Assembly: GCA_020632075.1 (NCBI GenBank)
Contig: JACKGH010000001.1
Coordinates: forward strand, 387,216-451,215
Length of the DNA: 64,000 nucleotides
Reading direction: 5' to 3'
Origin: Candidatus Nomurabacteria bacterium
GTDB lineage: Bacteria; Patescibacteriota; Minisyncoccia; Phycocordibacterales; UBA918
Shown here: in pieces, positions 4,003 to 52,668 of the stretch
How positions within the stretch are numbered: position 1 is the first letter of the stretch
How the letters are laid out: every line of letters begins with the position of its first letter
Translations under genes and position numbers: made by a program
Notes under the pieces: generated by a model
The model's input: the letters and a program-made list of their open reading frames with translations, nothing else
Told to the model about the DNA's origin: nothing
Database searches by the model: none

Positions 4003-5502
4003 ATGCAACACATTGGAACCCGCATCGCCGACGTCCGCGAGACCCTCGGCCTCACGCAGACAGACTTAGCCAAAAAGATCAAAACCACCCAGAGTGCGAT
4101 CGCTCGCATAGAAGCCGGCAGACAAAATGTCAGTGCTGATATGCTGAAGCGCATCAGCAAGGCTCTCGGGAAAAATCTCATCACCCTCTCCCCTGGTACC
4201 GTCAATGTACGGATCGGTGGTGGCAAAAAACTCACCGGCACCATTGAGACCAACACGTCAAAAAACGGTGCAGTCGGCCTCCTGTGTGCATCACTCCTCA
4301 ATAAAGGCACCACCACCCTTCACCGCATGCCACGCATCGAAGAGGTACACCGCATTATCGAGGTACTCGAGAGCATTGGTGTAAAAGTGGAATGGAAAGG
4401 CACTACCGTAACGATCACTCCGCCAAAAAAGTTTGAACTACAAAAGATCGACAAGGTTGCCGCCATGCGTACTCGCAGTATCGTGATGTTCATCGGCCCA
4501 CTCATGCATCACCTGAAGTCATTTTCGCTGCCACAGTCTGGCGGTTGTAAGCTTGGCAGCCGTACGGTGAAGCCGCATTTCTTTGCACTAGAACACTTCG
4601 GAGTGGATATTAAAGCGACTGAGGATTCGTTTGTTGTGAAGACTGTGCCACGGCCGGCCGGCGAGATCATTCTGTATGAATCTGGTGACACCGTGACCGA
4701 AAACGCACTCTTTGCAGCCGCCGGCCGGCCGGAGACCACCATCATCAAGTACGCCACTGCCAACTACATGGTGCAGGAAGTCTGCAACTTCCTGTGTCAG
4801 CTTGGAGTGAAGATCGAAGGCTATGGCACTACCACCTTGAAAGTAACTGGGGTTAAAGATATTGATCAGGATGTCGAATACACTCTATCTGAAGACCCGA
4901 CCGACAGTATGTTCTTCCTAGCTGCCGCGATCGTGACCAATTCCAGCATTACCATTACTCGTTGTCCGATCGAATTCCTTGAACTTGAGCTGCTCAAGCT
5001 TGAGAAGATGGGCTTTAAGTGTAAAAAGTCTAAGCCGTACCTGAGCCATAATGGCGCCACCAAGCTGGTCGATATCACCACCAAACCATCGAAGCTCGTG
5101 GCACTTCATGAAAAGATCCATCCGGCAGTGTACCCAGGACTCAACATGGACAATCTCCCCTTCTTTGCCGTGATTGCTACCCAAGCCGCTGGACAAACAC
5201 TCATTCATGACTGGGTGTACGAAAAGCGTGCAATCTACTTCACTGAGCTTGATAAACTTGGCGCCGATACCGTCCTCGCTGATCCACACCGCATCTTTAT
5301 CACCGGCCCGACCAAGCTACGCGCCACTGAGCTAGTGTGTCCACCTGCCCTTCGTCCAGCCACTATCTTACTCATTGCTATGCTTGGCGCTGAAGGAGAA
5401 TCGGTGCTGCGCAACATCTACAGCATCAACCGTGGCTATGAGAAATTGGTAGAACGACTCGCGAGCTTAGGTGCAGACATTTCGTATTTGGATGAGTTTT
5501 AA
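4003..5502 (+). CDS. murA: UDP-N-acetylglucosamine 1-carboxyvinyltransferase (MurA) with N-terminal XRE-family helix-turn-helix domain fused in frame (499 aa)
   Basis: Residues about 60-499 align with MurA throughout (KNGAVGLLCASLL, active-site loop LPQSGGCKLGSRTVKPH with Cys, C-terminal NRGYEKLVERLASLGADI); residues about 8-60 LGLTQTDLAKKIKTTQSAIARIEAGRQNVSADMLKRISKALG are a canonical Cro/C1-type HTH; single uninterrupted ORF. Confidence 0.85.
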   Translation: MQHIGTRIADVRETLGLTQTDLAKKIKTTQSAIARIEAGRQNVSADMLKRISKALGKNLITLSPGTVNVRIGGGKKLTGTIETNTSKNGAVGLLCASLLNKGTTTLHRMPRIEEVHRIIEVLESIGVKVEWKGTTVTITPPKKFELQKIDKVAAMRTRSIVMFIGPLMHHLKSFSLPQSGGCKLGSRTVKPHFFALEHFGVDIKATEDSFVVKTVPRPAGEIILYESGDTVTENALFAAAGRPETTIIKYATANYMVQEVCNFLCQLGVKIEGYGTTTLKVTGVKDIDQDVEYTLSEDPTDSMFFLAAAIVTNSSITITRCPIEFLELELLKLEKMGFKCKKSKPYLSHNGATKLVDITTKPSKLVALHEKIHPAVYPGLNMDNLPFFAVIATQAAGQTLIHDWVYEKRAIYFTELDKLGADTVLADPHRIFITGPTKLRATELVCPPALRPATILLIAMLGAEGESVLRNIYSINRGYEKLVERLASLGADISYLDEF

Positions 5503-5627: not shown

Positions 5628-8600
5628 TTATTCAAACTTAATATTCCCCCGCAGCAACAATTCCCCTTGCTGCTTGAACGACCCCTGTGCACGAGTCGCC
5701 GCTTCGGACATGATGATATACACTCGACCTTCATTTGAAGAATCGTCATATCCGTGTGCACCGATAACCAGATCATCAACCCCATCACCCGAAACGTCGC
5801 CAGCTGCGAGAGAAATACCAAAGTTACTATTTGTTGCTTCACCACTGATCTTCACACCGCTGTCGATTGCATCTGAGGTGTGTAAATTATCACCGTAAAA
5901 GAGGTAGACGTCTCCGGTAAAGGTGTCGCTGCGCCACGCACCCACTGCAAGATCGTCAACTCCGTCACGATCAAAGTCGCCAGTTGCAAGTGTTGTACCT
6001 AAGTTATCATCACTACTTGCCTCACCACTTAATATCACATCTGCAGACGATGCAGAGATCGATCCTGAGAGCGTCGCATTGTAGAAAACATACACTCGAC
6101 CACTAAATGAATCATATCGGTATGACCCAACCGCCAGATCGTCTTTGCCGTCGGCATTATAGTCACCCACTGTAAGAGCCCCACCAAAATACGCACTAGT
6201 ACCCACTCCCGTCATAATTACATCTGCCGTTGAAGCGTTTGCAGAACTCATCGAGCCGCCGTAGAAGACATAGGCGCGACCGGTATTGCTGTATACATAC
6301 GCCCCCACCACCAAGTCATCTATACCATCATTATCAAAATCACCTGTAGCCACCCTGTCTCCAAAGTAGTTACTCGTTCCTTCACCAGTGTATGTCACAT
6401 CTGCGCCGGTTGCGTTTTCATCGATCATTGAGCCGCCGTAGAAGACATAGGCGCGACCGGTATTACCACCGTTTGAATAACCATACGCACCAACTACGAG
6501 ATCATCGGTGCCGTCTGCATTGTAGTCACCTGTCGTAAGAGAATGTCCAAAGTAACCAAGTATCCCCTCACCGGTTAGCGTCACATCAGCATCACTCGCG
6601 TCACCGTCAGCTAAGCTGCCGCCATAGAAAATATAGGTGCGACCAGCACCACTTCCATACGAAGTAGCACTAACCACCAAGTCGTCAACTCCATCGTTGT
6701 TAAAGTCACCCTTAGTTAGGGCTGTTCCAAACGCCGTACCACTGTCGCCGGTCAGCGTTACATCTGCACTAGTCGTGGTTGTGGAATGTTTAACACCTCC
6801 ATAGAAGATGTAGGTGCGGCCTTGGTTTGAGTTGTATCCCGCAGCACTTACTGCCAAGTCATTTTTTCCATCATTATTAAAGTCTCCTACAACAACATCC
6901 TTACCGAGATCATCTTCAGACGCAGCACCGGTCACCTGCCAATCATTCGTCGTGTAGAAATACAACCGACCTTGGTTAGAATTATACAAATGTGCGCCTA
7001 TCACCAAATCGTCACCACCGTCGTTATTAATATCCCCTGCAGCCATGTAACGTCCGTAATACCCTGTCTCTCCGTCGAGAGTAACATCAGCACCAGAGGC
7101 GTTTTCAGTAATTATCGAACCACCGTAGAAGATGTAGGCACGGCCTTGGGAAGAGTTGTAGCCAACCGCACCGACTGCAAGATCCTCCATGCCGTCGTGA
7201 TTAAAATCACCCGAAATTAAATCAAGACTAAAACTGTTACTAGTCGCTTCACCGGTCAATGTCACATCAGCACCAGAGGCGTTTTCAGTAATTATCGAAC
7301 CACCGTAGAAGATGTAGGCACGGCCTTGGGAAGAGTTGTAGCCATGTGCACTAACTACCAAGTCATCACTCCCGTCTGAATTGAAATCACCCGAACTAAG
7401 TACAACACCTAGGTAACTATTTCCGGCTTCGCCGGTGATAATCGCATCCGCGCCCGATGCATTTTCAGAGATCATTGCACCACCGTAGAAGATGTAGGCA
7501 CGGCCCTCGTAACTGCCATATGTATTTGCCCCAACCGCGAGATCGTCTTCCCCGTCTGAATTGAAATCGCCAGTTGCTAGAGAGGTTCCAAAATTATTAG
7601 TGGTGGCTTGGCCAGTCAGTGTCACATCAGCACCAGAAGCGTTTTCAGTAATCATCGAACCACCATAGAAGATGTAGGCACGGCCAGTAGCAGAACTGTA
7701 GCTGTTAGCTGAAACGGCCAAGTCCTCTACACCGTCAGCATTAAAATCGCCAACGGCAAGTGCTGACCCAAAACTGTTACTCGCACCTTCACCAGTCAAT
7801 ACAACGTCAGCATCGGTTGCGTTTCCACTAGCTATACCACCTCCATAGAAGATATATGCCCGACCAACTGTACCACCATACAATGTCGCACCCACCACGA
7901 GATCATCTTTGCCATCATTGTTAAGGTCACCTATTTCCAAATTAACTCCAAAGTAGTTGGTAGCAGCTTCCCCCTCGATAATCACATCAGCTCGTCCGGC
8001 TTTGGTTTGATAACTCCCGTCGTTGTAGAAGATATACACTCTCCCAGCATTTGAATTGTAAGAGTAAGCCCCCACCACAAGATCATCCTTACCATCATTG
8101 TTAAGGTCACCGATCGCACTTGCTGCTGCAAAAAGATTTGAGGCACTTTCCCCCGTAATCTTCAGCTCATAGCCCATGATCGGATCAACCCGCAAGCCAT
8201 CAGATAGTGGCGAGCGCTGGATCTCCCAGGCGTAGTCCTCGCGGGTTTCGTAGAAATAGATGCGGCCGGTGTCGCCGCCATTGTTGTAGCCCGGAGCACC
8301 AATCACGAGGTCGTCTTTGCCGTCGGCGTTGAAGTCGCCAGTTATGAACGCGTGACCGAAGTCATCGTTGGTACTGTCTCCGGTGATGATGATGTCGGCG
8401 CTGGCGGCTGCAGTCGGGTACGAGCCGTCGTTGTAGAAGATGTAGGTGCGGCCTTGATAGGTATTGTATTGCCAGGCTCCTACCACGATATCTGTCTGAC
8501 CATCGTGATTGAGATCGCCGGCGGTCAACGCGGTACCAAAACTGCTTAAAGCTTCACCGGTCAAAGTCACATCTGCAGCGCTATCAGTAGTACTTGCCAG

Positions 8601-11600
8601 AATGTTCCCATAGAAAATGTACACTCGACCTTGATTTGAGCTGTAACCCGGGGCACCGATGACGAGGTCATCACGACCGTCGCTATTGAAGTCTCCGATA
8701 GTAAGAGCATTCGCAAAAGCAGATGCTGCGATAGTTCCAGTAAGTATGACATCTGCCAAGCTGTCAGATGAGCTCGCAAGCGAACCTCCGTAAAAAACGT
8801 AGGCACGACCAAGGTTGCTACTATAGCCTGTAGCGCCGACAATCAGATCGTCGATTCCGTCGGAATTAAGATCACCCGTCGCTAAAGAGTAGCCGAACGC
8901 TTCAGCTGTTCCGTCGTTTGTGTATAACACGTCACTGGTGCTTGCATATTCAGACACTAAGTCTCCATAAAACACATACGTCCGACCCTTGGAGCCACCA
9001 TATAAAAACGCACCAACTGCCAAATCATCTTTTCCATCAGCATCATAGTCTCCGACAGCGAGCGAAGAGCCAAAGAAACTCACAGTCGCCTCGCCAGTCA
9101 GAGTTACATCCGCACCTGAAGCGCCTTCTGACACCATAGCTCCACCATAAAATACATATACTTCTCCTGTAAGTGTTGTCTTGATCGACGCACCAACCAC
9201 CAAGTCATCAACTCCGTCACTGTTGAAGTCTCCGACAGCGAGCGCTCCGCCAAAATTACTCGAACTATCTCCTGTTAGAGTAACGTCACTCGTACTCGCC
9301 AAGGTAGTATAGTCTCCATCATTGTAAAAAATGTACACCTTACCTGCGTTGGAATTGTCTAAATATGCACCAACCGCAAGGTCATCTCTACCGTCGTTAT
9401 TAAAATCTCCTGTTGCAAAGGATTTACCAAAGTAGTCGCTCGTTCCCTCGCCGGTGATGTGCTGGTCGAGGTTCACCTGGCCAGATTGAGAGTAGAAGAT
9501 GTAGGTTCGGCCTTGGGAGGAGTTATAGGCATATGCTCCTGCCACCAAGTCTTCCTTGCCATCATGATTGAGATCAGCAACAGCAAGAGCGTTGTATCCA
9601 AAAAAATTCGACGTACTTTCACCGGTTATTATCAGATCTGCAGACGTTGCATTTCCGCTAATTATTGATCCACCGTAAAAAACATAGACTCGTCCTTCAT
9701 TAGTCGTCACATCATACCCAGGAGCACTTACAACGAGGTCATCACTACCATCAGCATTCAAGTCTCCCTGTGCAAGGGTAAAGCCAAACTGTCCATTGGT
9801 TGAAGATTCTCCTGTTAGGGTCACGTCTGCACCAGAAGCGCTTTCGCTCACCATCATACCGCCGTAAAAAATGTACACTGCTCCCTGACTACTACTAACA
9901 GCAATTGCTCCAATAGCAAGATCGTCGGTCCCGTCATTATTTAGGTCTCCTATCGTTACTGAGTTACCAAAAAACATGCTGGAAGCTCCTCCCGAAAGCA
10001 CAACATCCGCCGCGGAGGCACTCGAACTCGACATGCTACCACCATAAAAAACGTAGGCTCTTCCTTGAGTAACACTGTATGCACGAGCAGTCGCTACAAG
10101 ATCATCAATCCCATCGCTGTTCAAGTCTCCGCTTGTGATCGCATAACCAAAGAAATTGTTGCCAGCTTCTCCTGTGTACACTACATCGGCATTTGAAGTA
10201 ACATCAGACGAGACAGGTCCATAGAAAATATATGTGCGACCAGTCCGGCTCGTATATCCATACGCCCCGACCGCGACATCCTTCACCCCATCGCCATTGT
10301 AATCAGCAACTCCTATTGCTGTTCCTGTATTTTCACCTGCGATACTTCCTGTGAGGGTGACATCAGCAGTGTTAGCTGAGCCACTTTCGATCGGTCCTCC
10401 AAACCATATGTACACTCGACCCTCTGTATTTGACACGTCATAGTTATAGGCACCCACCAGGAGATCGTCGGTCCCGTCACCGTTTACATCACCACTCGTT
10501 AAAGAGTAACCAAACAGATCTCCTGCGACTTCGCCAGTAATGATAACCGGAGCATCGGCGGCATACCCCGTGCTTTCACCACCCCAAAAAATGTACACTC
10601 GTCCAATATCTGTAGAACCCCCATCATCGTAGTCATGTGCCCCTACAGCTAGATCTGTCTTCCCGTCGCTATTCCAGTCTCCGATTGCAACCGCCTTACC
10701 ATATTCACTATTAGTCGCTTCCCCCGTAATCACATCCCCTGAGTTACTCACCCCCGGCGCCGTAAACTGCAGCGTCGGATCAAGCGCAATTGGGTAGCCA
10801 AGGAGTGGTACATCAAAGGAGACGGAAAGAACATAGTCACCAGAGGTGTCATTTGGATCGATGGTAGAGGCTTTGGTCACCTGCCACTCATGGGTCTGTT
10901 GGTTGCCTTGAGCATCAATGGTGTATGGAGCCGGGATGATGAGGTCTGGGGCGCGGTTCTCAATATCAGCCAGCATATCAGCAGCAATCGTGCGCTGCGC
11001 TCTCGCCCAAAGGTCTTCTTCGACGCCCGGTTCGGGTGGCGTGTTGGTCGGAAGATAACGGACTTCGACCTCACCACGGTCGTTGGTGGTTAAGTGAGCG
11101 TTTGAGAAGGTGTATGACTGGGTTTCGTGACCAGTGCCGGTTTGGAAGATGGTCCAGTGTTTTAAGTTGCGGTACCCGGCAGCTTGGTCTTTCTGGTAGG
11201 CGTAGTAGGTGTGGAGGCGGTTGTCTTCGCTTGTGTACTTAAGGTATTGCGGCGACACAGCACCGGACACAACTTCGCTCAGGGAGCGCTCCGGGCCGCT
11301 AGGCCAAGTCATACTCCCTTCTCGAAGTGTGTCCGGTACCGTGTCTTCGTTTGTACCCGCTGTCAGTAGCGACGCACGATGTGGCTGGGTGGTGTTGTGT
11401 CGCACCGTGAACTGTCTGTTGCCAGGGAGCGTGATGGTGAGAGGTTCGTTGAGAGAATCTGGGAACTGGAGGGAGAGGGATTCACTAAGATCTGGTGAAG
11501 CAAAGGTAGTACTCGCTTGATTGCCATAGGTGATCTCTACCCCGTCTTTAAGGGTATCGGTGAGGGTACGTTCTTCGGAGAGTGAGACCAGTGGGTACTG

Positions 11601-11768
11601 AGAGAAGTCTTCTTCGACACGCTGTCCGACGAGATCGAATTGAGAGAGGTCGGTGGTGATGTCAGGTGCTTGATTTGGTTTAAAAAATCCAGAGAGATAC
11701 AACACGAAAAACACAACTGCTACTCCAGCCAACACAATTAACGTTCGGTACGTACCTGTACCTGGCAT
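5628..11768 (-). CDS. giant membrane-anchored surface protein with about 28 FG-GAP (integrin-alpha-like) repeats, about 2046 aa
   Basis: ORF track 5628..11810 (TTG); likely ATG start 11768 (MPGTGTYRTLIVLAGVAVVFFVLYL TM anchor); after a roughly 380-aa non-repeat region, repeated about 60-aa units FGxSLAxGDxNxDGxDDLxVGA...GRxYxFYG run to the C-terminus. Confidence 0.8.
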   Translation of the reverse strand: MPGTGTYRTLIVLAGVAVVFFVLYLSGFFKPNQAPDITTDLSQFDLVGQRVEEDFSQYPLVSLSEERTLTDTLKDGVEITYGNQASTTFASPDLSESLSLQFPDSLNEPLTITLPGNRQFTVRHNTTQPHRASLLTAGTNEDTVPDTLREGSMTWPSGPERSLSEVVSGAVSPQYLKYTSEDNRLHTYYAYQKDQAAGYRNLKHWTIFQTGTGHETQSYTFSNAHLTTNDRGEVEVRYLPTNTPPEPGVEEDLWARAQRTIAADMLADIENRAPDLIIPAPYTIDAQGNQQTHEWQVTKASTIDPNDTSGDYVLSVSFDVPLLGYPIALDPTLQFTAPGVSNSGDVITGEATNSEYGKAVAIGDWNSDGKTDLAVGAHDYDDGGSTDIGRVYIFWGGESTGYAADAPVIITGEVAGDLFGYSLTSGDVNGDGTDDLLVGAYNYDVSNTEGRVYIWFGGPIESGSANTADVTLTGSIAGENTGTAIGVADYNGDGVKDVAVGAYGYTSRTGRTYIFYGPVSSDVTSNADVVYTGEAGNNFFGYAITSGDLNSDGIDDLVATARAYSVTQGRAYVFYGGSMSSSSASAADVVLSGGASSMFFGNSVTIGDLNNDGTDDLAIGAIAVSSSQGAVYIFYGGMMVSESASGADVTLTGESSTNGQFGFTLAQGDLNADGSDDLVVSAPGYDVTTNEGRVYVFYGGSIISGNATSADLIITGESTSNFFGYNALAVADLNHDGKEDLVAGAYAYNSSQGRTYIFYSQSGQVNLDQHITGEGTSDYFGKSFATGDFNNDGRDDLAVGAYLDNSNAGKVYIFYNDGDYTTLASTSDVTLTGDSSSNFGGALAVGDFNSDGVDDLVVGASIKTTLTGEVYVFYGGAMVSEGASGADVTLTGEATVSFFGSSLAVGDYDADGKDDLAVGAFLYGGSKGRTYVFYGDLVSEYASTSDVLYTNDGTAEAFGYSLATGDLNSDGIDDLIVGATGYSSNLGRAYVFYGGSLASSSDSLADVILTGTIAASAFANALTIGDFNSDGRDDLVIGAPGYSSNQGRVYIFYGNILASTTDSAADVTLTGEALSSFGTALTAGDLNHDGQTDIVVGAWQYNTYQGRTYIFYNDGSYPTAAASADIIITGDSTNDDFGHAFITGDFNADGKDDLVIGAPGYNNGGDTGRIYFYETREDYAWEIQRSPLSDGLRVDPIMGYELKITGESASNLFAAASAIGDLNNDGKDDLVVGAYSYNSNAGRVYIFYNDGSYQTKAGRADVIIEGEAATNYFGVNLEIGDLNNDGKDDLVVGATLYGGTVGRAYIFYGGGIASGNATDADVVLTGEGASNSFGSALAVGDFNADGVEDLAVSANSYSSATGRAYIFYGGSMITENASGADVTLTGQATTNNFGTSLATGDFNSDGEDDLAVGANTYGSYEGRAYIFYGGAMISENASGADAIITGEAGNSYLGVVLSSGDFNSDGSDDLVVSAHGYNSSQGRAYIFYGGSIITENASGADVTLTGEATSNSFSLDLISGDFNHDGMEDLAVGAVGYNSSQGRAYIFYGGSIITENASGADVTLDGETGYYGRYMAAGDINNDGGDDLVIGAHLYNSNQGRLYFYTTNDWQVTGAASEDDLGKDVVVGDFNNDGKNDLAVSAAGYNSNQGRTYIFYGGVKHSTTTTSADVTLTGDSGTAFGTALTKGDFNNDGVDDLVVSATSYGSGAGRTYIFYGGSLADGDASDADVTLTGEGILGYFGHSLTTGDYNADGTDDLVVGAYGYSNGGNTGRAYVFYGGSMIDENATGADVTYTGEGTSNYFGDRVATGDFDNDGIDDLVVGAYVYSNTGRAYVFYGGSMSSANASTADVIMTGVGTSAYFGGALTVGDYNADGKDDLAVGSYRYDSFSGRVYVFYNATLSGSISASSADVILSGEASSDDNLGTTLATGDFDRDGVDDLAVGAWRSDTFTGDVYLFYGDNLHTSDAIDSGVKISGEATNSNFGISLAAGDVSGDGVDDLVIGAHGYDDSSNEGRVYIIMSEAATRAQGSFKQQGELLLRGNIKFE
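7081..7700. repeat. near-identical 84-nt DNA repeats with 180-bp period inside the FG-GAP gene
   Basis: 7081..7164 and 7261..7344 differ at 1 nt (gtaacatc vs gtcacatc); related copies start at about 7441 and about 7621; correspond to repeated protein segment GRAYIFYGGSIITENASGADVTLTGE. Confidence 0.8.
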
Positions 11769-11848
11769 GACACTAATAATAGCACTGCAACACCTGATCT
11801 TTTTCCACAAGTTAACAGTAAGATAGGGCTTTTGGAGCAGCCCGCTGC

Positions 11849-11888
11849 AGCTAGATTCAGGACTAGGACTAAAGTCCTGAATCTAGCT
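11849..11888. repeat. 40-nt perfect hairpin/palindrome AGCTAGATTCAGGACT-aggactaa-AGTCCTGAATCTAGCT in divergent promoter region
   Basis: 16-bp perfect inverted repeat read directly; between giant gene start and priA-like gene start. Confidence 0.6.
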
Positions 11889-22277: not shown

Positions 22278-23723
22278 CTAGTATCGTCGCCAGAAGTATG
22301 GCGTAAACAACATAAGAACCGTAAACAGTTCCAGTCGGCCCACGATCATCAGGCCCGAGAGATACCACTTCACTAAATCTGGCAACTGCGAGTAGTCGCC
22401 AACCGGGCCGACCTCACCGAGACCGGGACCAATATTCCCCAGCGTAGCAGCGACTGCACCAAAGGAAGTCGGTGTATCGATCCCAAACAAGAGCAGTACC
22501 ACCACCGACACTACCGCAATAAAGATGTACAACATAACGAATGCGATCACTCGATACAACACCGACTGCGGGACCAGCTTGCCGTTGAAACGAACCGGCA
22601 AGATCGCATCAGGGTGTAGCTGTTTGCGGAATTCTAAAAATGCGTCTTTAAAGAGAACCAGATGTCGCATGACCTTCACTCCTCCTGCGGTCGATCCTGT
22701 CATGCCGCCGACAAACATTAAAATAAACAAAATGTAGACCATCGGTGCCGCCCAGACGTAGTAATCAGCAGTCGCAAAACCAGTGGTGGTCACGATCGAC
22801 ACTACTTGGAACAATGCATCACGAAAGGCATGTTCGATCCCGGTACCGAGCGTCACTCCAAAGAGCCATAAGACCAAGGTTGCACCCACTACCACATACA
22901 CGTAGTAGCGAAACTCATCATTACGAAACAGCGCCGTGATCTTGGTGAACAGTGCAGTGTAGAGGAGCGCAAAGCTCGTCCCCGCTAAGAACATAAAGAA
23001 GATCACAATGTACTGCAGGTGCGGCGCAAAGGCAGCCATGCTCGCTTGTTTGGTTGAAAAGCCGCCAGTAGAAAGCGTGGTGAATGCGTGATTGATCGCA
23101 TCGAAAACAGACATGCCACCAAGCCACAAAAAGAAACCGAGTGCAAACGTAAGTACCACATACACCACCCACATGATCCCGGCAGTTTCTTTAATGCGTG
23201 GAGTGAGCTTGTCGACTGTTACTCCAGGCGATTCAGCATTGAAGAGCTGCATACCGCCAATCCCCAAGAGCGGCATGACTGCGATCATAAGCACTACAAT
23301 TCCCATTCCGCCGATCCACTGTGTCAAACTTCGCCACAACAAGATACTTTCTGGCTGCACCTCGATCGCGGTCAGCACTGACGCACCAGTCGTGGTAAAG
23401 CCAGAGACCGATTCAAAGAATGCATTAGCGAGCTGTGGGATAGCCCCTCCAAAAAGATACGGTAAAGCACCCATAAGGGAAAGGAGAACCCAACCACCGG
23501 TGACGATCAGATAGATGTCTCGTTTGTGGAGTTGGCGCTTACCACGGTTTGGCAACCACAGTGCAAGCCCGCACACAAACACCAACACGGCCGACACCAA
23601 GAACGCTGCGAATTGTCCATCGCCCCGGTACAAAGAATAGAACAGAGGCAGCAGCATGAACGAAGCCTGCAATAACAAGAGGATCCCTAGTATTTGCACA
23701 ATGGCTCGGACATTGAATGACAT
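22278..23723 (-). CDS. trkH: potassium uptake protein TrkH/KtrB family
   Basis: Multiple TM with repeated selectivity-like TTGF/TGGF/GG motifs (SGFTTTGASV, TTGFATAD, LSTGGFSTK). Confidence 0.85.
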   Translation of the reverse strand: MSFNVRAIVQILGILLLLQASFMLLPLFYSLYRGDGQFAAFLVSAVLVFVCGLALWLPNRGKRQLHKRDIYLIVTGGWVLLSLMGALPYLFGGAIPQLANAFFESVSGFTTTGASVLTAIEVQPESILLWRSLTQWIGGMGIVVLMIAVMPLLGIGGMQLFNAESPGVTVDKLTPRIKETAGIMWVVYVVLTFALGFFLWLGGMSVFDAINHAFTTLSTGGFSTKQASMAAFAPHLQYIVIFFMFLAGTSFALLYTALFTKITALFRNDEFRYYVYVVVGATLVLWLFGVTLGTGIEHAFRDALFQVVSIVTTTGFATADYYVWAAPMVYILFILMFVGGMTGSTAGGVKVMRHLVLFKDAFLEFRKQLHPDAILPVRFNGKLVPQSVLYRVIAFVMLYIFIAVVSVVVLLLFGIDTPTSFGAVAATLGNIGPGLGEVGPVGDYSQLPDLVKWYLSGLMIVGRLELFTVLMLFTPYFWRRY

Positions 23724-23725
23724 AC

Positions 23726-25072
23726 TTAGAGCATATTTTGAAACGCATCACGCACAGCATTGTGGCACGCAACAATGACCCGATCGTTTGGCTGGAAAAT
23801 ATATGAGGGATCAAGCTCAACCGGTTTGTTTTTGCGCAGCACCCCACCGATCACCACTTCGCTCTTTGCAATGAGTTCAATGCTCTTTTGGGGCATACCG
23901 GTGATCGGCGATCTGTCCTTCACTAAGAATTCGAAGATCTCCATATCGAGACCCGGGATACTCGCCACTGAAAGTACGTTACGCTTCTTTACATGACGAA
24001 AGATAAAGTCTGCCGCAATGTACTTTTTATTGATAAGCGTATCGACACCGAGCTCGTACGCGCCTTGCAAATAGTGTACGTCTTTCACAAACGCGATCGT
24101 ATGTCTGACACCGTGCTGTTTGGCGATCAGACATGAAATGATGTTGAGCTCTGGATTGCCGGTCGCAGCCACGATCGCGTCCATCTCATCGACGTCATGC
24201 TCTTCTAAGAACCCCGATTCTTGCATGTCGCCATGAATGACCAACGCCTCCGGCAAAAAATCTGCTAACTCCTCAGCAACTGATTTCTTCCCCTCTACCA
24301 TTGTCACCTGGTAGCCCTTTGCCTGCAGCCGTCTGGTCGTCTCAATCCCCGCGCGACTACCACCAAACACCATCGCTCGCTTGCGTCGACGTGTTTGTCC
24401 AGACTGTACTTTCGCCATCTTATGGAGACCGCCGGAAGAAGCTATGAAGTACAGATGATCAGTCTCTTTAAGCGGGAGGCGTTCGCTAGCATGATAGGTC
24501 ATACCATCACGCACGAGTGCGATCGGCTCTACCCCGGCCGCCCGATACTTGCGGGCAATTTGCTGCAATGTATGACCGATCAATGTACTGTACGCCGGGA
24601 CGATCAAACCAGCCAAAAAGTATTTCCCATGCTCAAATTTTACCAACTGTGAAAACGCCTGTGTATCGAGCAACATCGCGACCTCATCGGCAGCAAGCGA
24701 ATCCGGTGACACGATCTCATCGATACCGAGTCCAGCGAAATCAAACACATCATCGTGCAAGATCAATTTCGAATGACGCACACGAGCGATCACTCGCTTC
24801 GCACCAACCCGCTTGGCTAAGATCGCGGTCATGAGATTAAGCTCTTCACTCTCGGTCACGGACACAAACAGATCAGCTTTAGCCGCGCCTACTTCCATCA
24901 GATTGTCATATGAAAGTGCGTTACCCCGAAATGTCGCAACGTCATGCTTTTGTGCCAGACGCTCAAGTTTTTCTGCACTCTTGTCGATCACGCTCAGCTC
25001 GTGTCGCTCAGCAGAAAGCTGTGCAATGAGAAATGTGCCTAGGTCGCCGGCACCCGCTACTACGATGCGCAT
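23726..25072 (-). CDS. trkA: potassium uptake protein TrkA (two RCK/NAD-binding domains)
   Basis: MRIVVAGAGDLG Rossmann motif, second RAMVFGGSRAG Rossmann, 448 aa; 2-nt gap to trkH. Confidence 0.85.
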   Translation of the reverse strand: MRIVVAGAGDLGTFLIAQLSAERHELSVIDKSAEKLERLAQKHDVATFRGNALSYDNLMEVGAAKADLFVSVTESEELNLMTAILAKRVGAKRVIARVRHSKLILHDDVFDFAGLGIDEIVSPDSLAADEVAMLLDTQAFSQLVKFEHGKYFLAGLIVPAYSTLIGHTLQQIARKYRAAGVEPIALVRDGMTYHASERLPLKETDHLYFIASSGGLHKMAKVQSGQTRRRKRAMVFGGSRAGIETTRRLQAKGYQVTMVEGKKSVAEELADFLPEALVIHGDMQESGFLEEHDVDEMDAIVAATGNPELNIISCLIAKQHGVRHTIAFVKDVHYLQGAYELGVDTLINKKYIAADFIFRHVKKRNVLSVASIPGLDMEIFEFLVKDRSPITGMPQKSIELIAKSEVVIGGVLRKNKPVELDPSYIFQPNDRVIVACHNAVRDAFQNML

Positions 25073-25121: not shown

Positions 25122-26468
25122 TTAGTTGGACACAGTGGAGCTAGTATTATCATTCAACGTGTACCAATCAAGATTGCGAGTGATAAACATGACCGTCGCC
25201 AGGACTCCAAAGAGTAGGACCGAACCAAACAGCAACGCATACTGATCCATTTGCAGCAGGATGTACAAGTAACCATACAATGCAGTGAGCAGGGTTGCGA
25301 TCGCTAGAGCACGCTTCTTAGCTTTAAGTACACTGAAACAATAGCCAGTAATGAGCAGCGTGGTCGCGATCATCGCCACCAAGTACGCCGGCAGAAATCC
25401 GATCACCTCAGCAAATGAAAGGAGGAGTAGATAAAAGAGCGCAATCGCCAGACCGACCAGGAGATACTGCACTGGATGGATCCGCAAACCGGCAAGCACC
25501 TCGTACATGAAGAAGGTCAAAAACGTGAGGCTGATGAAGAGTATTGCGTACTTTGTGGCGCGGTCGACCATAGTATAGAAGTCGACTTCCTGGAACAGGC
25601 TCACTCCAAACGCTTTTGCTTGCAGCGTTTCGTTGCCGTCAACCGCGCCACTGCCCAACCAGTACTGCGGGAGATTCTTCCCGTATGAAGTAACGTTCCA
25701 AGTCGCCTCAAAACCTTGCTCGGAGACCGTACGGTTCTCAGGCAAAAATTCTCCACTGAAGCTTGGTGCACTCCAGTCTGAACTAAGTGTCACGGCAGTA
25801 TTTTCTCCGAGTGGAATGAATGAGATCGACTGACTTCCCTTCAGCGGCAGCGCGAATGAAAATTGGCATGTCGCCTGACTTGGGTCGATCGTGACCGGAG
25901 TATGTACGCCGACAGTGTCGAGCGTTAAGAATTCAGAAGACGGTAACATCTTGTACTCTTTTTCTCCAAAGCTGAGTGGAAACGAAGACGTGATACCGCG
26001 CGTATCGGATACATTCAGCGAGAGGACTGCCTTGTCCCATAAGACCTTTGTATCTGCCGATGATCCCAGATCGATGACTGATATGTCGAAGCTACCGACC
26101 CCATTCACTGTCGTGGTGTAGACCGGTGTTTCATACACCCCTCTTGTGAGCAACTGGGTGCCGATCTCACTCTGATACGAAAGGTCCTGTGGCAGTAGCG
26201 TGAGGGTGGTCGTATTGACCACACGTTCACCCGTAGTGGTAACAGCTGTCTTTTCAACCGGAATTGTAATGACCGGACCAGCGATCGTCTGTGGCCGACT
26301 CCACTGTTCAGACACTTGATCTGACGCATCTCTTTGGGTGCTTTCTCGTTCTTGGACAATATTCCACACGAACATAGTGGCGACCCACGACACAAACACA
26401 AGTGCAGCCAGCACAATAAGCTTGGTTGTTAACTGACTCTGAAGCTTCGGTCGAGGAATTTCTCTCAT
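25122..26468 (-). CDS. creD: CreD-like inner membrane protein
   Basis: N-terminal TM, large extracytoplasmic domain, C-terminal cluster of TM helices (KYAILFISLTFLTFFMYEVL...HPVQYLLVGLAIALFYLLLLSFAEVIGF) matching CreD architecture. Confidence 0.6.
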   Translation of the reverse strand: MREIPRPKLQSQLTTKLIVLAALVFVSWVATMFVWNIVQERESTQRDASDQVSEQWSRPQTIAGPVITIPVEKTAVTTTGERVVNTTTLTLLPQDLSYQSEIGTQLLTRGVYETPVYTTTVNGVGSFDISVIDLGSSADTKVLWDKAVLSLNVSDTRGITSSFPLSFGEKEYKMLPSSEFLTLDTVGVHTPVTIDPSQATCQFSFALPLKGSQSISFIPLGENTAVTLSSDWSAPSFSGEFLPENRTVSEQGFEATWNVTSYGKNLPQYWLGSGAVDGNETLQAKAFGVSLFQEVDFYTMVDRATKYAILFISLTFLTFFMYEVLAGLRIHPVQYLLVGLAIALFYLLLLSFAEVIGFLPAYLVAMIATTLLITGYCFSVLKAKKRALAIATLLTALYGYLYILLQMDQYALLFGSVLLFGVLATVMFITRNLDWYTLNDNTSSTVSN

Positions 26469-32822: not shown

Positions 32823-32912
32823 TGTTTGTTTCCTCCACAGAAAACTAGTCAGTTCATTTCGGAAATACCCTACACAAAACAATACGCTATAAATAGCGTA
32901 TTGTCAATAGTG

Positions 32913-33234
32913 CTCCGCCGGTAGGATTCGAACCTACGACCAATCGGTTACATCTTGTCCGAAAATTTCTTAACGGGATGGACTATATCATCATCCTGAT
33001 CTGATAACCGTGGGATGTGAGGGGCTTCGAGCAACTTCCTGCCCTACTTCCTTTCGGAATAGTCTCTGAACCTTCCTTGGATTACTCCTTGGCTTGGCTG
33101 CTGATTGCCCGCGCACGCGCTAGGGGTTCCAGCAATTCACCTCATGTTTCCGTACCTCATTACTGAGGAAGGCTGCTATTTAGAACATTTGTTCAATGTT
33201 ACAGCCGACTGCTCTACCACTGAGCTACGGCGGA
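32913..33234 (-). tRNA. tRNA gene (most consistent with tRNA-Asn, anticodon GUU) interrupted by a 250-nt group I intron; exon 1 33201..33234, exon 2 32913..32950
   Basis: Minus-strand 5' half UCCGCCG-UA-GCUC-AGUGGUA-GAGC-A-GUCGG-CUGU and 3' half UAA-CCGAU-UGGUC-GUAGG-UUCGAAU-CCUAC-CGGCGGA-G fold into a canonical cloverleaf (7-bp acceptor, TΨCGAAU loop, 5-nt variable loop); U1-A72 plus G73 and CUGUUAA loop match bacterial tRNA-Asn. Confidence 0.7.
32951..33200 (-). ncRNA. group I (self-splicing-type) intron in anticodon loop of tRNA, between anticodon positions 35 and 36
   Basis: 5' exon ends in U, intron ends in G; internal guide GCAGCC (intron nt about 24-29) pairs with exon end GGCUGU including the G·U wobble; conserved core elements present: P AAUUGCUGGAA, Q AAUCAGCAGCC, R GUUCAGAGACUA, S AUAUAGUCC. 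Confidence 0.75.
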
Positions 33235-39669: not shown

Positions 39670-42600
39670 CTATTCGTTTGGAGGAGATTCGACTACTTCT
39701 TCTGGGTTTTCGTTTGCTGTTTCTTCCGCACTGACCTCGTCAGCTGGAAGAGGTTCGTTTGGTACTTCCTCCTCAATAACCTCCTCCTGCTCATCAGACA
39801 CAGCTTCGTCTTCAGAGTCTCCTGAAACCTCTTCGTCGTCTTCAATCACTTCATCTGTAGTGGTCGAAGTGTCTTCCAAAACCTCTTCCGTACCAGCAGC
39901 AGATGTCGTCGCAGTCTCTTCGTCTGTTGGAAGCACGCCAACTGGCTCAACCACCTTGTCTTCGTCATCTTCTTCAACTGGTTGTTGTTCAACTCCCAAC
40001 TCAGCTTCTACTTCAGCCAATCTCTCTTCAAGCTCGGCAATACGCTGCTGGTTGCCAGTCACAGTCTGCCAGATCTCTTGAATAGCAGTTACCACTGCCG
40101 CCAAGATCGGCCTCGTTGAAAGAGTTTTGTAGCCATCAGGATTTTCTCCCACTGCTTCTGGCAGGAAGTCTTCTATGTTTTGTGCCGAGAATCCAGCATA
40201 GATGGTGGTTTGATCATAGCCACTTTTTTCGTTCCAACTGTAACGAATTGGCCTGATACTGAGTATTTCGTCGAGCCCAGCTTCGTATGCCCCTAGAATA
40301 TTCTTAAGTCGTTCGTCGGAACTGACTGTCACATTACCGACTGCGTCAGTTTCAAGCGTACCGCCAACAATACCCGCAAAACGCACACCACTGGCTACAG
40401 TAAGCATAGCTGTTGGACTAGTGGTACCAATCCCAACATACCCGTTGGTATCGATAGTGAGACGCGAGGTGTTGTTGGTCTGGAAGCGTAACTGATGATT
40501 TGAGAAGGTGCCAAAGAAGCCTTGGAAGTCTTCCGCACGCATATCGAAGATCACGTCGTTGGTCGTATCACGGAAGCGAGCTCCGGCGCCGGCCGGCGCT
40601 ACGATATTCAAAAGTCGACTATCAGTACTGCTACCGATGTTGATCTGCCCATCGTAGATCAAGCCGCCGATCGTACTCGAAGCCACCCACTTGTTGTGAT
40701 AGAGCGGCGGCGGGGTTTCGGTCACACCATCCTCACCAACCTTCACGATCGATCCTTCTTCGATTATAAAATTATCATTACCACCATCGTCGCTGTACGC
40801 TTCGTTCATACCCCAAAGCTGCCCTTCGACTTTTACATATGACGCATTTGAGACACGCACGCCAGTCAATGGTGCAACTGGCGGATTGCTACTGTCGTCT
40901 TCACCAATAATCTGCGAAAGGCCGTTGATAAAGACAGGCGCAACTTGTGCGGTCGATGAACCAATGATCGCTACGCCGGCATATGGTGTCTCGGTACCAC
41001 CACTAGAGTTTGGTCCGTCACGGCGCGTAAGGAGGCCGTTGAAGGTTACGGTAGTTGTACCCGTCAGTGAGATACGTACGCCATGACGGTCGTTGCGGTC
41101 GGTTGAGAAGTCAGTGAACATCATACCGCCGTTGCTTGACGATCCGTCGATGTAGAGACCAGTGAGTCCATTGAATACAGCACGTGAGTTGTTGATCTTG
41201 GTTTCACCCATCGAAGAGAGGTAGATTCCTCGAAGCGCATTACCAACTGCCAAGAGATCCTCAATGTATGAGTCGTTGAGTGCAGTGGCTCGAAAGCCGT
41301 GACCATCGGCACTATAAATAGAAAGACCACGGATAGTGAACCCGCGAGGGTTACCACTACCCGTACCAACTGCCGCTTCAAAACCATTACCGGTCACCTG
41401 CGAAATATCGACGTCAGTCAGTTTCCAATCGCGCACCAAACCTTCAAAATAGACACCGTCCACATCAACGCTGGCCGAACCACCATCGAGACTGAGGTAC
41501 TCGAGTCGACCACCGTTGTTGTGGTTAGTTTCGCCTGAGATAGTGCGGTCGCGCACATGGATCAATGCTGCACCCGAGAAGGTCCCAAAGTCAGCCCGGA
41601 TCGAGCTGCGTGGTGTCGAGCTATACGACCAACGCGGTGAGTACGCACCACGAAGCGTGACTGGCGTATCGAGTACGATCGGACTTGAAATACGATACTC
41701 GCCCATTGGGAAATAGACAGTACCACCTTCGCCACACGCGGCGATCGCTGACGCGATCGCCGCGTCATTGATCGTACTATTGTCACCCACCGCACCATAC
41801 GCCTCCACGTTACACACCTGCCCACCCGTATCGACGAGTCGTGCAGTGGTCGTACCAGCCGAAAGCGTACCTGCGACAGTGAGTGTTTCACTCGGGGTAC
41901 TGGTGCCAATACCAACATTGCCTGTAAGCCGAAAGACGTCACCACTGACAGCAGACCAGTTGGCGGTTGATGAACCAGCCAAGACAACTCCACCCCAGTA
42001 CAGATCACCACCAAAATTGTAGAGGCGATTCACAACATTACTCGGTGACACTTCAGCCAAGTACAGCGCACCTGCCAAAGACAGTGAATCAGCCGGGCTG
42101 CTGGTACCAATACCAAGACGACCAGTCACGTATGAGGTACCCGAGAGGATCGCATCAGCCAGCGTCGGTGTAGTGAGTTCTGCCTGTACAAAAATATCCT
42201 GTTGCACAGCATCGACTCGCTCATAGATACGATCGACTGATTTGAGGACATAATCTCTTGTCGAAAGTGAGCTCGTCGCTTGCACTCCGTCAGCAGTCGC
42301 AATCGCTGCACTGTGTGGTAAAGAATTAATGTATTGCAACACCTCTGTGATGCGTTGATTCAGCAATGATTCTGAAACGCCCGACTGCTGGATCGTTACG
42401 TACTCGTTGGTGATCGTCTCATAAGTGACTGGGTACGTACTTGTCGCAAGCTCTGGATCTTTTTGTGTCACTGATTCACCAAGCACTACTGGATCTGGGT
42501 TTGGTTCATCGAGATGCTGGATCGGCGTAGCTACCGCTACTGATTGTGCACATCCTCCAAAGGGGCGCACCATCCATCCAAACCAGTCACAGAAAAATCC

Positions 42601-42690
42601 TTGTTCACCGGTATTCGCACTCGCAAAAAACGGTGTGGTCAGAGTACTAACCAAAAACACCACCGCTACCATCCGAAGTGCGATTCGCAT
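39670..42690 (-). CDS. secreted right-handed beta-helix (pectate-lyase-superfamily) protein with C-terminal intramolecular-chaperone (peptidase S74-type) domain and acidic low-complexity tail; tailspike/depolymerase-like (1006 aa)
   Basis: Signal peptide; VEAYGAVGDNSTINDAAIASAIAACGEGGTVYFPMGEYRI pectate_lyase_3-type N-terminal signature; long Gly/Asn/Thr-rich beta-helix region; SDERLKNILGAYEAGLDEILSIRPIRYSW...RIAELEERLAEVEAEL chaperone-domain signature; then about 120 aa of E/D/T-rich low complexity. Confidence 0.75.
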   Translation of the reverse strand: MRIALRMVAVVFLVSTLTTPFFASANTGEQGFFCDWFGWMVRPFGGCAQSVAVATPIQHLDEPNPDPVVLGESVTQKDPELATSTYPVTYETITNEYVTIQQSGVSESLLNQRITEVLQYINSLPHSAAIATADGVQATSSLSTRDYVLKSVDRIYERVDAVQQDIFVQAELTTPTLADAILSGTSYVTGRLGIGTSSPADSLSLAGALYLAEVSPSNVVNRLYNFGGDLYWGGVVLAGSSTANWSAVSGDVFRLTGNVGIGTSTPSETLTVAGTLSAGTTTARLVDTGGQVCNVEAYGAVGDNSTINDAAIASAIAACGEGGTVYFPMGEYRISSPIVLDTPVTLRGAYSPRWSYSSTPRSSIRADFGTFSGAALIHVRDRTISGETNHNNGGRLEYLSLDGGSASVDVDGVYFEGLVRDWKLTDVDISQVTGNGFEAAVGTGSGNPRGFTIRGLSIYSADGHGFRATALNDSYIEDLLAVGNALRGIYLSSMGETKINNSRAVFNGLTGLYIDGSSSNGGMMFTDFSTDRNDRHGVRISLTGTTTVTFNGLLTRRDGPNSSGGTETPYAGVAIIGSSTAQVAPVFINGLSQIIGEDDSSNPPVAPLTGVRVSNASYVKVEGQLWGMNEAYSDDGGNDNFIIEEGSIVKVGEDGVTETPPPLYHNKWVASSTIGGLIYDGQINIGSSTDSRLLNIVAPAGAGARFRDTTNDVIFDMRAEDFQGFFGTFSNHQLRFQTNNTSRLTIDTNGYVGIGTTSPTAMLTVASGVRFAGIVGGTLETDAVGNVTVSSDERLKNILGAYEAGLDEILSIRPIRYSWNEKSGYDQTTIYAGFSAQNIEDFLPEAVGENPDGYKTLSTRPILAAVVTAIQEIWQTVTGNQQRIAELEERLAEVEAELGVEQQPVEEDDEDKVVEPVGVLPTDEETATTSAAGTEEVLEDTSTTTDEVIEDDEEVSGDSEDEAVSDEQEEVIEEEVPNEPLPADEVSAEETANENPEEVVESPPNE

Positions 42691-47472: not shown

Positions 47473-48867
47473 TTATCCAGTTACCTCTTCTGCAGTCTTC
47501 GGCATGTACTGCTCAATCTGTTCTGGCTTCACACGCTTGAGTGAGGTCTTTGGTAGCATTGTGAGCAACTTCCAACCAATATCAAGTGATTCTTCTACTG
47601 AACGGTTTTCAAATTCTCCCTGGCCCACGAACTCTCGTTCGAAGGCATCAGCAAACTTCAGGTGTGCGCGGTCAGTGTCATCAAGTGACGCTTCACCAAG
47701 CACCACCGCGAGCTCGCGTACTTCACGACCAGTTGCGTATGACGCAAAGAGCTGGTCCTTCAGTGCTGAGTGATCAGCGCGAGTCTTCCCCTCACCGACT
47801 CCGGCAGACCAGAGTCGTGAAAGTGAACCTTGTACGTCAACTGGTGGAAATACACCCTTACGGTAGAGTTCGCGAGACACCACGAACTGCCCCTCGGTAA
47901 TGTAGCCAGTGAGGTCTGGTACCGGGTGAGTCTTGTCGTCGTCTGGCATGGTAAGGATTGGGATCTGCGTGATGGTTCCCTGCTTGCCCTTTACGCGTCC
48001 TGCTCGCTCGTAAATAGTTGAAAGGTCGGTGTAGAGGTAACCTGGGTACCCGCGGCGTCCTGGCACTTCCTTACGAGCTGAAGACACTTCACGAAGTGCC
48101 TCACAGTAGTTGGTAAGGTCAGTGAGGATCACGAGCACGTGCTTACCTTTTTCAAAGGCGAGGTACTCAGCTGTGGTGAGTGCCATACGTGGAGTTGATA
48201 CACGTTCTACCACTGGGTCAGCTGCCGTGTTGATGAAGAGCACTGAACGCTCGAGCGCTCCTGCCTCTTCGAATTCACGACGGAAGTATTCTGCTTCCTC
48301 AAATGACACACCAAGCGTCGCGAAGACAATCGCAAAGTCTGAACCATCCTTCACCGATGCCTGACGCGCGATCTGTGCCGCGAGGCGTGAGTGTGGAAGA
48401 CCAGCACCTGAGAAAATCGGAAGCTTCTGTCCACGCACGAGCGTGTTCATCACATCGATTGATGACACGCCAGTCTGAATGAAGTCGTTCGGGAATTCGC
48501 GTGAGTATGGATTGATCGGCTCACCCGCGATATCTCGACGCTGTTCTGGCACGATCTCTGGGCCACCGTCTGCTACTTCACCAGCACCATTGAACACGCG
48601 ACCAAGCATGTCTTCTGACACGCCGAGCTTGAGTGTTTCACCACGGAAGCGAGCGCGTGTACCTTCAGCTGTCATACCACTGGTTGACGCAAACATCTGT
48701 ACCACTGCCTTATCTTTTGCAATGTCGAGCACTTTACCGAAGCGTGGCGTGCTTTCTCCGGCCACATTAACCTCTACGAGTTCTTCGTACTTCACTCCTT
48801 CTACCCCCTCTACCACCATTAGCGGTCCAGCGATTGAAGAAATGTCTGTGTATTCTTTGTTACTCAT
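47473..48867 (-). CDS. atpB: V/A-type ATP synthase subunit B (regulatory)
   Basis: 464 aa, nucleotide-binding-fold motifs ([15 protein letters not shown] region) typical of B subunit without full P-loop. Confidence 0.9.
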
Positions 48868-48881
48868 GATACTGCTATTAC

Positions 48882-50675: not shown

Positions 50676-50729
50676 GGTTTCTATTAAATGTTTCTAAATT
50701 TCTAGTAATGAATAAATGATTGTGTTTCT

Positions 50730-50752
50730 GGCCGGCGCCGAAGGCGCCGGCC
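50730..50752. repeat. GC hairpin GGCCGGCGCC-GAA-GGCGCCGGCC inside the ATPase operon between atpF and atpA (hairpin family member)
   Basis: 10-bp perfect stem read directly; no T-run on minus strand. Confidence 0.6.
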
Positions 50753-50757
50753 TTCGT

Positions 50758-52078: not shown

Positions 52079-52087
52079 GATTGATTA

Positions 52088-52657: not shown

Positions 52658-52668
52658 GTTCGTGATAC

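Follow-up and report, generated by a model that had tools for sequence, protein, structure and literature searches.

Among the closest known relatives of the protein reported here are the bacterial integrin-type propellers. They are built from seven FG-GAP repeats, every blade has a Ca2+ site, and their loops are regular in length (Chouhan et al. 2011; PMC3192720). The proteins described there contain at most two tandem propellers (14 repeats) and no transmembrane (TM) segment, and a cytoplasmic location was assumed for them (PMC3192720). In bacteria of the Candidate Phyla Radiation (CPR), the predator Vampirococcus lugosii encodes giant membrane proteins with integrin and other adhesion domains, which have been proposed as host-attachment factors (PMC8080830), and the FG-GAP proteins of Peregrinibacteria are large and Cys-rich (PMC4736985); these papers touch on integrin/FG-GAP giant proteins in passing only. 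We analysed a stretch of 64,000 nucleotides from a Candidatus Nomurabacteria bacterium (contig JACKGH010000001.1, positions 387,216 to 451,215; this whole stretch is called the window below), in which one gene encodes a very large protein with FG-GAP repeats. An earlier note on this DNA, made from the sequence without database searches, had singled out the gene and suggested that its product might form four propellers behind a membrane anchor. Full-text literature searches found no description of a Parcubacterial four-propeller family, and this four-propeller, membrane-anchored extension of the known bacterial integrin-type propeller proteins appears to be new.

The reading frame of the gene, as given by a listing of open reading frames (ORFs), spans 5628..11810 on the minus strand and, counted from the ATG at 11768, comprises 2046 codons and a stop. 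This complete coding sequence (5628..11768, minus strand; 6141 nt) makes up 9.6% of the window, close to the tenth estimated before. An in-frame TTG at 11810, 14 codons upstream of the ATG, is a mechanically possible alternative start. We kept the ATG because its product resembles the N-termini of homologs (M-x-G-T..R, then about 20 hydrophobic residues); intact full-length homologs have a short, often basic N-terminal stretch before these hydrophobic residues. The encoded protein has a mass of 213 kDa and a pI of 4.05, lacks Cys, and contains 275 acidic residues (D+E) versus 82 basic ones (K+R).

The Pfam FG-GAP profile (PF01839), a check that the earlier note had proposed, matches 28 stretches of this protein (E=7.6e-225; 725 bits, with a cut-off of 22.1), and the pattern [GA]D.[NDS].DG occurs 28 times. 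What had been counted as about 28 repeats is therefore exactly 28, which as 4 x 7 is compatible with propeller closure. The motifs are spaced by 59-63 aa throughout, except after repeats 7, 14 and 21, where the spacing is 56, 76 and 50 aa, respectively. The array of about 60-aa units is thus uninterrupted, as had been claimed, and it includes these three irregular junctions. Because the spacing is irregular only at exact multiples of seven, we read the array as four consecutive seven-bladed propellers. The same pattern is found in the majority consensus of 61 homologs, which was computed without the window protein and has 28 Ca2+-loop motifs (six spacings of 60, then 56, six of 60, then 75, six of 60, then 50, and six of 60), and many individual homologs display the 7/14/21 junction pattern directly. 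The junctions have conserved sequences in the family, namely YSQNGQVN, YETRxNFAWQxQ... and YTFND, followed at the end of the protein by a basic tail. Regular expressions for the second and third of these linker motifs proved too strict across homologs, and the consensus analysis was used instead.

On this basis, the predicted propeller 1 (repeats 1-7, aa 346-769; 9462..10733, minus strand, as for all parts of the gene) ends in a short junction, ...YIFYSQSGQVNLDQ, and propeller 2 (repeats 8-14, aa 770-1202; 8163..9461) includes the long junction. This long inter-propeller linker after repeat 14 (aa 1174-1202, ETREDYAWEIQRSPLSDGLRVDPIMGYEL; 8163..8249) accounts for the 76-aa spacing and corresponds to the consensus YETRxNFAWQxQ.... 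Propeller 3 (repeats 15-21, aa 1203-1610; 6939..8162) has the short terminal junction ...LYFYTTNDW, and propeller 4 (repeats 22-28, aa 1611-2046; 5631..6938) includes the C-terminal tail. All four are delimited by Pfam matches and repeat spacing, and the first two additionally by structure prediction and structural comparison, as follows.

An AlphaFold2 (AF2) model of aa 330-1215, which covers repeats 1-14 and was built from a 62-sequence alignment, has a mean predicted local distance difference test score (pLDDT) of 86.9 and a predicted template modelling score (pTM) of 0.67. The model spans propellers 1 and 2 only, and the assignment of propellers 3 and 4 rests on sequence. It contains four regular strands per blade, and pLDDT falls below 50 in the linker after repeat 14. 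A Foldseek search of the PDB with this model returned integrin alpha chains only. For the propeller-only integrin chains (441-455 aa; alpha5, alphaIIb and alphaV), the template modelling (TM) scores were 0.69-0.73 when normalised by the target, but 0.36-0.38 when normalised by the query, which argues that one half of the two-propeller model covers a whole seven-bladed integrin propeller. The best sequence matches in the PDB are also the Ca2+-binding blades of integrins alpha5, alphaV and alphaIIb (E ~1e-17). The arrangement as four seven-bladed propellers suspected in the earlier note is therefore well supported by junction periodicity, by the homolog consensus, by the model of repeats 1-14 and by its similarity to integrin alpha, with closure being a matter of prediction and propellers 1 and 2 being the modelled ones.

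The N-terminus of the protein reads MPGTGTYR-TLIVLAGVAVVFFVLYLSGFF, with 8 residues, including R8, preceding a single hydrophobic segment at aa 9-29 (11682..11744). In a Kyte-Doolittle scan, strong 19-residue windows occur only within aa 4-31 (maximum 2.6), the next-best window anywhere in the protein reaches 1.57, and no second TM helix was found. An equivalent hydrophobic N-terminal segment is present in every full-length homolog with an intact N-terminus. The TM anchor that had been proposed is thus borne out as a predicted signal-anchor helix (TLIVLAGVAVVFFVLYLSGFF), and the predicted topology is N-in, C-out (type II), with the remainder of the protein outside. At the other end of the protein, a conserved basic tail (aa 2021-2046, SEAATRAQGSFKQQGELLLRGNIKFE; 5631..5708) follows the family pattern xEAxx...G(T/S)xKxxGxxxx(K/R). 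Sortase-anchored Gram-positive adhesins have a C-terminal LPXTG motif, a hydrophobic segment and a basic tail, whereas the window protein lacks a hydrophobic segment at its C-terminus, and LPx[TSA][GAN] does not occur in its sequence. FG-GAP proteins secreted by the type IX secretion system (T9SS) have a C-terminal sorting domain, but no such domain (PF18962 or TIGR04183) appeared in the Pfam or NCBIfam results for the window protein.

Between the anchor and the first repeat, which begins at about aa 346, lies a unique region that had been estimated at roughly 380 aa; the region is there, but its size is 316 aa (aa 30-345; 10734..11681). This N-terminal domain (N-domain) has no Pfam match even at E<=10, its family profile has no match among PDB sequences, and its structural model has no fold match above a TM score of 0.40 in the PDB or BFVD. 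The AF2 model, again from a 62-sequence alignment, has a pLDDT of 83.8 and a pTM of 0.80. It shows a beta-rich domain that also contains two long helices and that a loop modelled with low confidence (about aa 140-170) divides into two sub-domains. Fifteen residues are invariant in 62/62 N-domain sequences: R184, K203, W205, E215, Y219, G232, L253, R256, W295, Y325, P326, D330, P331, T332 and F335. The C-terminal end of the domain is the motif YPIALDPTLQF, which has the form YP(I/V)A(L/V)DPTLxF in the family.

A search of 1.84 billion representative proteins with the N-domain profile gave 131 matches, most of which belong to the four-propeller family or are fragments of its members, including the cluster of P0001 (see below). 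The C-terminal sub-domain of the N-domain is accompanied by FG-GAP repeats in all four of the other long proteins checked, and in three of these the repeats start near its end; the N-terminal sub-domain is also found, as modules arranged in tandem, in a small number of other proteins of very large size. In our reading, the N-domain would be a membrane-proximal pedestal or cap for the first propeller, though a binding or catalytic role is conceivable. As a domain with no detectable relative in Pfam, the PDB or BFVD, it is a candidate for structural study.

The full-length homologs, numbering about 50 (1950-2120 aa; 40-57% identity), come from Kaiser-, Nomura-, Pace- and Moranbacteria and from the 'Parcubacteria group', and every one that bears a name is from a Parcubacteria-group CPR bacterium. 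The best database match is a 100% identical protein of a Candidatus Kaiserbacteria (P0001), which places the genome in Candidatus Kaiserbacteria (CPR/Patescibacteria, Parcubacteria group), and the reduced-genome bacterium presumed in the earlier note agrees with this distribution. Using the sequence features that these proteins share, we define here a Parcubacterial four-propeller family, consisting of an anchor, an N-domain of about 310 aa, 28 repeats with fixed junctions and a basic tail. The window protein has all of these features (anchor, N-domain, 28 repeats, junctions of about 56/75/50 aa and basic tail). Public databases already name members of the family 'FG-GAP repeat protein'. We disregarded the JGI label 'formylmethanofuran dehydrogenase subunit C', which is attached to some homologs. 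The match of NCBIfam XAC2610_fam (152 bits, with a cut-off of 35) covers single FG-GAP/Ca2+-loop-like stretches only, and we read it as a cross-match to the repeat motif, as we do the SaoC and pallilysin-like matches, which are below their own cut-offs.

A pattern scan for N-domain motifs in 185,579 species-representative genomes yielded 28 loci, from Nomurabacteria, Paceibacterota, Moraniibacteriota, other bacterial metagenome-assembled genomes (MAGs) and 13 third-party annotation (TPA) MAGs titled 'uncultured Bdellovibrionales'. We do not take these 13 records (L010, L011, L013-L016, L023-L025 and L028-L031) as evidence for the family in Bdellovibrionales, since their N-domains interleave with those of Moraniibacteriota, with up to 79% identity. 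This suggests that the 13 record titles are mislabelled, and they would not support the presence of the family beyond the CPR. Two further loci, titled Micavibrio and Saccharibacteria, match only the pre-propeller motif of 18-21 residues. Some genomes have two copies, in tandem or dispersed: one locus contains tandem paralogs of 2057 and 2050 aa (L006, 1674-14153), the N-domains of two copies in one Nomurabacteria genome (L007/L008) are 86% identical, and two copies on one Moraniibacteriota contig (L019/L020) are 79% identical.

The window protein has the features of the FG-GAP, or integrin-alpha-type, propeller superfamily, that is, a profile match, the Ca2+ motif and seven-repeat closure, the last by prediction only. 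With the propeller of integrin alpha subunits (alpha5, alphaV and alphaIIb) it shares FG-GAP repeats of about 60 aa, seven repeats per propeller and hairpin loops with the DxDxDGxxD Ca2+ motif. However, integrin alpha has one propeller with 3-4 Ca2+ motifs, whereas the window protein would have four propellers, with Ca2+ motifs in 27-28 of 28 blades. The TM helix of integrin alpha is C-terminal, but that of the window protein is N-terminal, and there is no sign of the thigh and calf domains in the window protein, for which Pfam matches propeller-repeat families only (GFFKR was not searched for as a pattern). Integrin alpha is an obligate heterodimer with a beta subunit similar to von Willebrand factor A (vWA), while Pfam searches of the 41 window ORFs found no vWA or integrin-beta domain and thus no beta-subunit-like gene. 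The blades of the window protein, with about 46% mutual identity, are also far more regular than those of integrin alpha. By its architecture, the window protein is not an integrin alpha subunit proper.

The proteins of Chouhan et al. 2011 (PMC3192720) also have seven repeats per propeller, a Ca2+ site per blade and tandem propellers, but the window protein differs from them in its predicted four propellers, conserved anchor, family-specific N-domain and conserved inter-propeller linkers. The next-best relatives of the window protein by sequence are FG-GAP/FG-GAP_2 proteins of about 1300 aa from Bacteroidota and Ignavibacteria (P0095-P0119), with 33-42% identity over about 40% of the query. 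Their arrays of 14-15 repeats, each 58-61 aa long, would suffice for two propellers, with half as many repeats as the window protein. They contain additional FG-GAP_2, PF18962 or PF13860 domains, and some have a T9SS C-terminal domain; they lack the Parcubacterial N-domain and differ in their route of export and anchoring. The giant proteins of Vampirococcus and Peregrinibacteria resemble the window protein as large membrane or extracellular CPR proteins of integrin/FG-GAP type for which a role in attachment has been inferred (PMC8080830, PMC4736985). However, they belong to other phyla, have other architectures and have not been described as a fixed 4 x 7 family, and the Peregrinibacteria proteins are Cys-rich, in contrast to the absence of Cys here.

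The strict Ca2+-loop motif Dx[DN]x[DN]GxxD is present in 27 of the 28 blades, and a relaxed form is present in all 28. The Ca2+ loop has an entropy of about 0 over 519 canonical 60-aa repeats from the family, and entropy peaks at positions 5-10 (the loop preceding FG), 13, 33-34 and 38 (the loop linking strands 2 and 3). Comparison with six orthologs gave a corresponding pattern: identity reaches 0.65-0.81 for strands 2 and 3 and for the Ca2+ loop, falls to 0.28-0.39 for the two loops (4-1 and 2-3), and is lowest at position 13 (0.04-0.12). The low identity at variable positions holds even for the 57%-identical Nomurabacteria protein. The hypervariable elements, which are the 4-1 loop, the residue that follows FG+1 and the 2-3 loop, are rich in Ser, Asn and Thr, with Ser (20.5%) and Asn (14%) each enriched about twofold at the variable positions. 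In integrin structures, ligand binds to the 'top' face, which is made up of the 4-1 and 2-3 loops and is opposite to the face with the Ca2+ hairpins. By analogy to integrins, the variable loops would be located on the ligand-binding-type face of the propellers.

We also looked at how the repeats relate to each other. Mean blade-blade identity within the protein is 46%, and thus no higher than the identity between proteins (0.46 versus 0.41-0.48, off-diagonal), and we therefore rejected general concerted evolution of the blades. The most similar blades, 17-20 (67-71% aa identity), coincide with a tandem array in the DNA that was reported by Tandem Repeats Finder (7084..7685, minus strand; period 180, 3.4 copies, 74% matches), which lies within repeats 16-20 and is fullest over 17-20. 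This is the only local sign of homogenisation, which looks recent, and it suggests a local duplication or gene conversion within propeller 3. Orthology could not be traced blade by blade, since the same-index blade was the best match in only 1-6 of 28 cases and the blades are too near the consensus for such a test. At the level of whole propellers, however, the same-index propeller of an ortholog was the best match in 39 of 56 comparisons (25% expected by chance), and the four-propeller arrangement is therefore older than the divergence of these lineages.

From these features we infer a function in Ca2+-dependent surface binding or adhesion, and we consider it probable, though by no means assured, that the window protein is a membrane-anchored, Ca2+-dependent surface adhesin or receptor. 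The single N-terminal TM helix would tether the protein, and the beta-rich domain of about 316 aa, followed by the four integrin-type propellers, would be located outside the membrane. Extracellular Ca2+ would fill up to 27-28 sites and stiffen the propellers, which might then form an acidic rod or string, a few tens of nm long, that reaches out from the membrane across the envelope. Ligands would be bound by the variable loop faces; glycans or proteins present on a surface, or on the cell of a host or partner, are the likeliest candidates. Binding would probably occur without integrin-style transmembrane signalling, because the cytoplasmic part consists of 8 residues and no beta-subunit-like partner is encoded nearby. 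Attachment to a host or partner, as the earlier note had proposed, is consistent with the signal-anchor, Ca2+ motifs of extracellular type, the variable face loops and the giant surface-protein genes that adjoin homologs in other genomes, which we count as support for a role in surface binding. Some points weigh against such a role. The gene is found amid housekeeping genes (those for MreB, an HTH-MurA-like protein and PriA-def-fmt) and not in a surface-protein or pilus cluster, the placement of the variable loops on the 'top' face depends on the analogy to integrins, and the variability of the loops could stem from relaxed constraint, rather than from ligand specificity.

Some of the same observations could also be explained by a structural role in the envelope, in which the rod of four propellers would help to organise the cell wall or surface layer of its own bacterium, as a spacer, scaffold or S-layer-like element, with its fixed length as a ruler. 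Both the length and the 4 x 7 architecture are strictly kept, since more than 50 homologs fall within 1950-2120 aa and agree in the lengths of their linkers; the repeats are regular, near the consensus and about 46% mutually identical, and the gene is near those for MreB, a MurA-like protein and YceG both in the window and in its closest relatives (L002 and L003). We nevertheless think that a purely structural component is rather unlikely, because the gene is no longer syntenic with cell-wall genes in Nomura- and Moranbacteria, some genomes differ in copy number by having two paralogs, and face loops that are hypervariable between orthologs fit recognition better than lattice contact. It is improbable that the protein is a surface-anchored enzyme, such as a polysaccharide lyase or glycosidase with an active site in a propeller or with a catalytic N-domain on a propeller stalk, since 28 near-identical Ca2+ blades with variable face loops are unlike a single conserved active site. 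Beta-propellers do occur among carbohydrate-active enzymes, and the N-domain has invariant charged and aromatic residues (R184, K203, E215, R256, W205 and W295) and weak Foldseek matches to the beta-sandwich domains found in polysaccharide lyases, GH38 and glycoside phosphorylases. However, these fold matches, with TM scores of 0.13-0.30 and E>1e-3, are not significant, and no match to a catalytic family was found among Pfam, NCBIfam or PDB sequences.

A Ca2+ buffer or store, which was once suggested for the supposedly cytoplasmic bacterial integrin-type propellers (Chouhan et al. 2011; PMC3192720), would agree with the very acidic composition and the up to 28 Ca2+ motifs of the window protein. 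That suggestion was built on the absence of a TM segment, though, whereas the four-propeller family has a conserved N-terminal signal-anchor, and buffering would need neither a conserved N-domain, nor fixed linkers, nor variable face loops; we regard this role as highly improbable. Lower still is the probability we give to the long ORF being an assembly artefact, through the fusion of two genes or through collapse or expansion of the repeat array. Short-read MAGs are prone to misassembling repetitive genes, but the same length (1950-2120 aa) and repeat count recur in more than 50 homologs that were assembled independently, several of them within contigs of 0.36-0.74 Mb, and the 28-repeat pattern is also present in the family consensus. 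P0001, whose partial sequence lies at one end of a contig of 8 kb, matches the window protein with 100% identity over all of its 1368 aa, which correspond to the N-terminal part of the query. The tandem array at 7084-7685 is the only one in the DNA of the gene, and with 74% matches at most, and only locally, repeat identity at the DNA level is low, so that collapse of repeats in assembly is unlikely. We therefore read the ORF as one gene, as the earlier note did, and consider an assembly artefact or two-gene fusion very unlikely.

Returning to the proposed surface adhesin or receptor, a bolder version would be that the family is the principal host- or partner-recognition receptor of Parcubacteria, fixed in length and integrin-like but independent of a beta subunit. 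The four propellers, rigidified by Ca2+, would set the distance to the partner cell. The range of partners would depend on the fast-evolving parts of the face (the 4-1 loop, position 13 and the 2-3 loop), and pairs of paralogs in some genomes would widen it. We put this forward tentatively, as a conjecture that is more likely wrong than right. If it were true, recombinant ectodomains could serve as bait in the search for the hosts of uncultured Parcubacteria. Most Parcubacteria have not been cultured, and this 213-kDa four-propeller protein offers a concrete, expressible candidate for partner pull-down or binding experiments. The family would also extend the bacterial integrin-type propellers, so far with a maximum of two in tandem, no anchor and an assumed cytoplasmic location, to a clearly extracytoplasmic four-propeller form. 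Current ideas are not overturned by this, since giant surface proteins with adhesion repeats are expected in CPR bacteria.

With regard to its genomic context, the FG-GAP gene is convergent with a gene encoding a helix-turn-helix (HTH)-EPSP-synthase/MurA-like protein, which is beside mreB, and divergent from a 630-aa gene, which is the priA gene of a housekeeping priA-def-fmt cluster. The two closest relatives (L002 and L003) share this arrangement, apart from insertions, and a YceG gene is also nearby; the arrangement is lost in the Nomura- and Moranbacteria loci that we compared. The 630-aa neighbour was considered as a conserved operon partner, but this was discarded because it is PriA and the synteny is limited to the closest relatives. 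Next to the Nomura- and Moranbacteria homologs are genes for other giant surface-type proteins, namely Laminin_G_3, NosD/beta-helix and Peptidase_S74 proteins, a tandem paralog and a protein of 5209 aa, as well as for TPR proteins and a Y1 transposase. At one locus (L004), a Peptidase_S74 protein of 2700 aa adjoins the FG-GAP homolog. Scans of both flanks of the window gene for promoter and terminator consensus sequences found nothing. The divergent intergenic region between priA and the FG-GAP gene contains a perfect 15-bp inverted repeat with an 8-nt spacer (11850-11887; GCTAGATTCAGGACT ... AGTCCTGAATCTAGC), about 80 bp upstream of the ATG, which is a possible operator or RNA hairpin. In the convergent gene (4003-5502, plus strand), an HTH_3 domain of the Cro/C1 type is fused to the N-terminus of an enzyme of the EPSP-synthase/MurA family, and this fusion (499-505 aa) is kept beside mreB in L002 and L003.

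Several features elsewhere in the window were also recorded. A protein of 1006 aa (39670-42690, minus strand) combines a pectate-lyase-like/right-handed beta-helix with Peptidase_S74, the endosialidase intramolecular chaperone, and so resembles a tailspike in architecture, although the genome is cellular. Genes for the A and B subunits, the AC39/d subunit and the I subunit of a V/A-type ATPase are at 47473-55213 (minus strand). An inner-membrane protein of the CreD family (25122-26468, minus strand; 475 bits) adjoins TrkA/TrkH potassium-uptake genes (22278-25072, minus strand), and CreD seems unexpected in a reduced CPR genome. Finally, a group I intron (32911-33233, minus strand; Rfam RF00028, 65.3 bits versus a gathering score of 50) is inserted in the anticodon loop of a tRNA that was missed by ARAGORN. 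Since the anticodon depends on the choice of junctions, we placed them by the usual splicing rule, with U as the last base of the 5' exon and G as that of the intron. When exon 1 (ending at 33201) is joined to exon 2 (starting at 32950) in this way, the result is a 73-nt tRNA, and the intron-split gene is thus probably that for tRNA-Asn(GUU).

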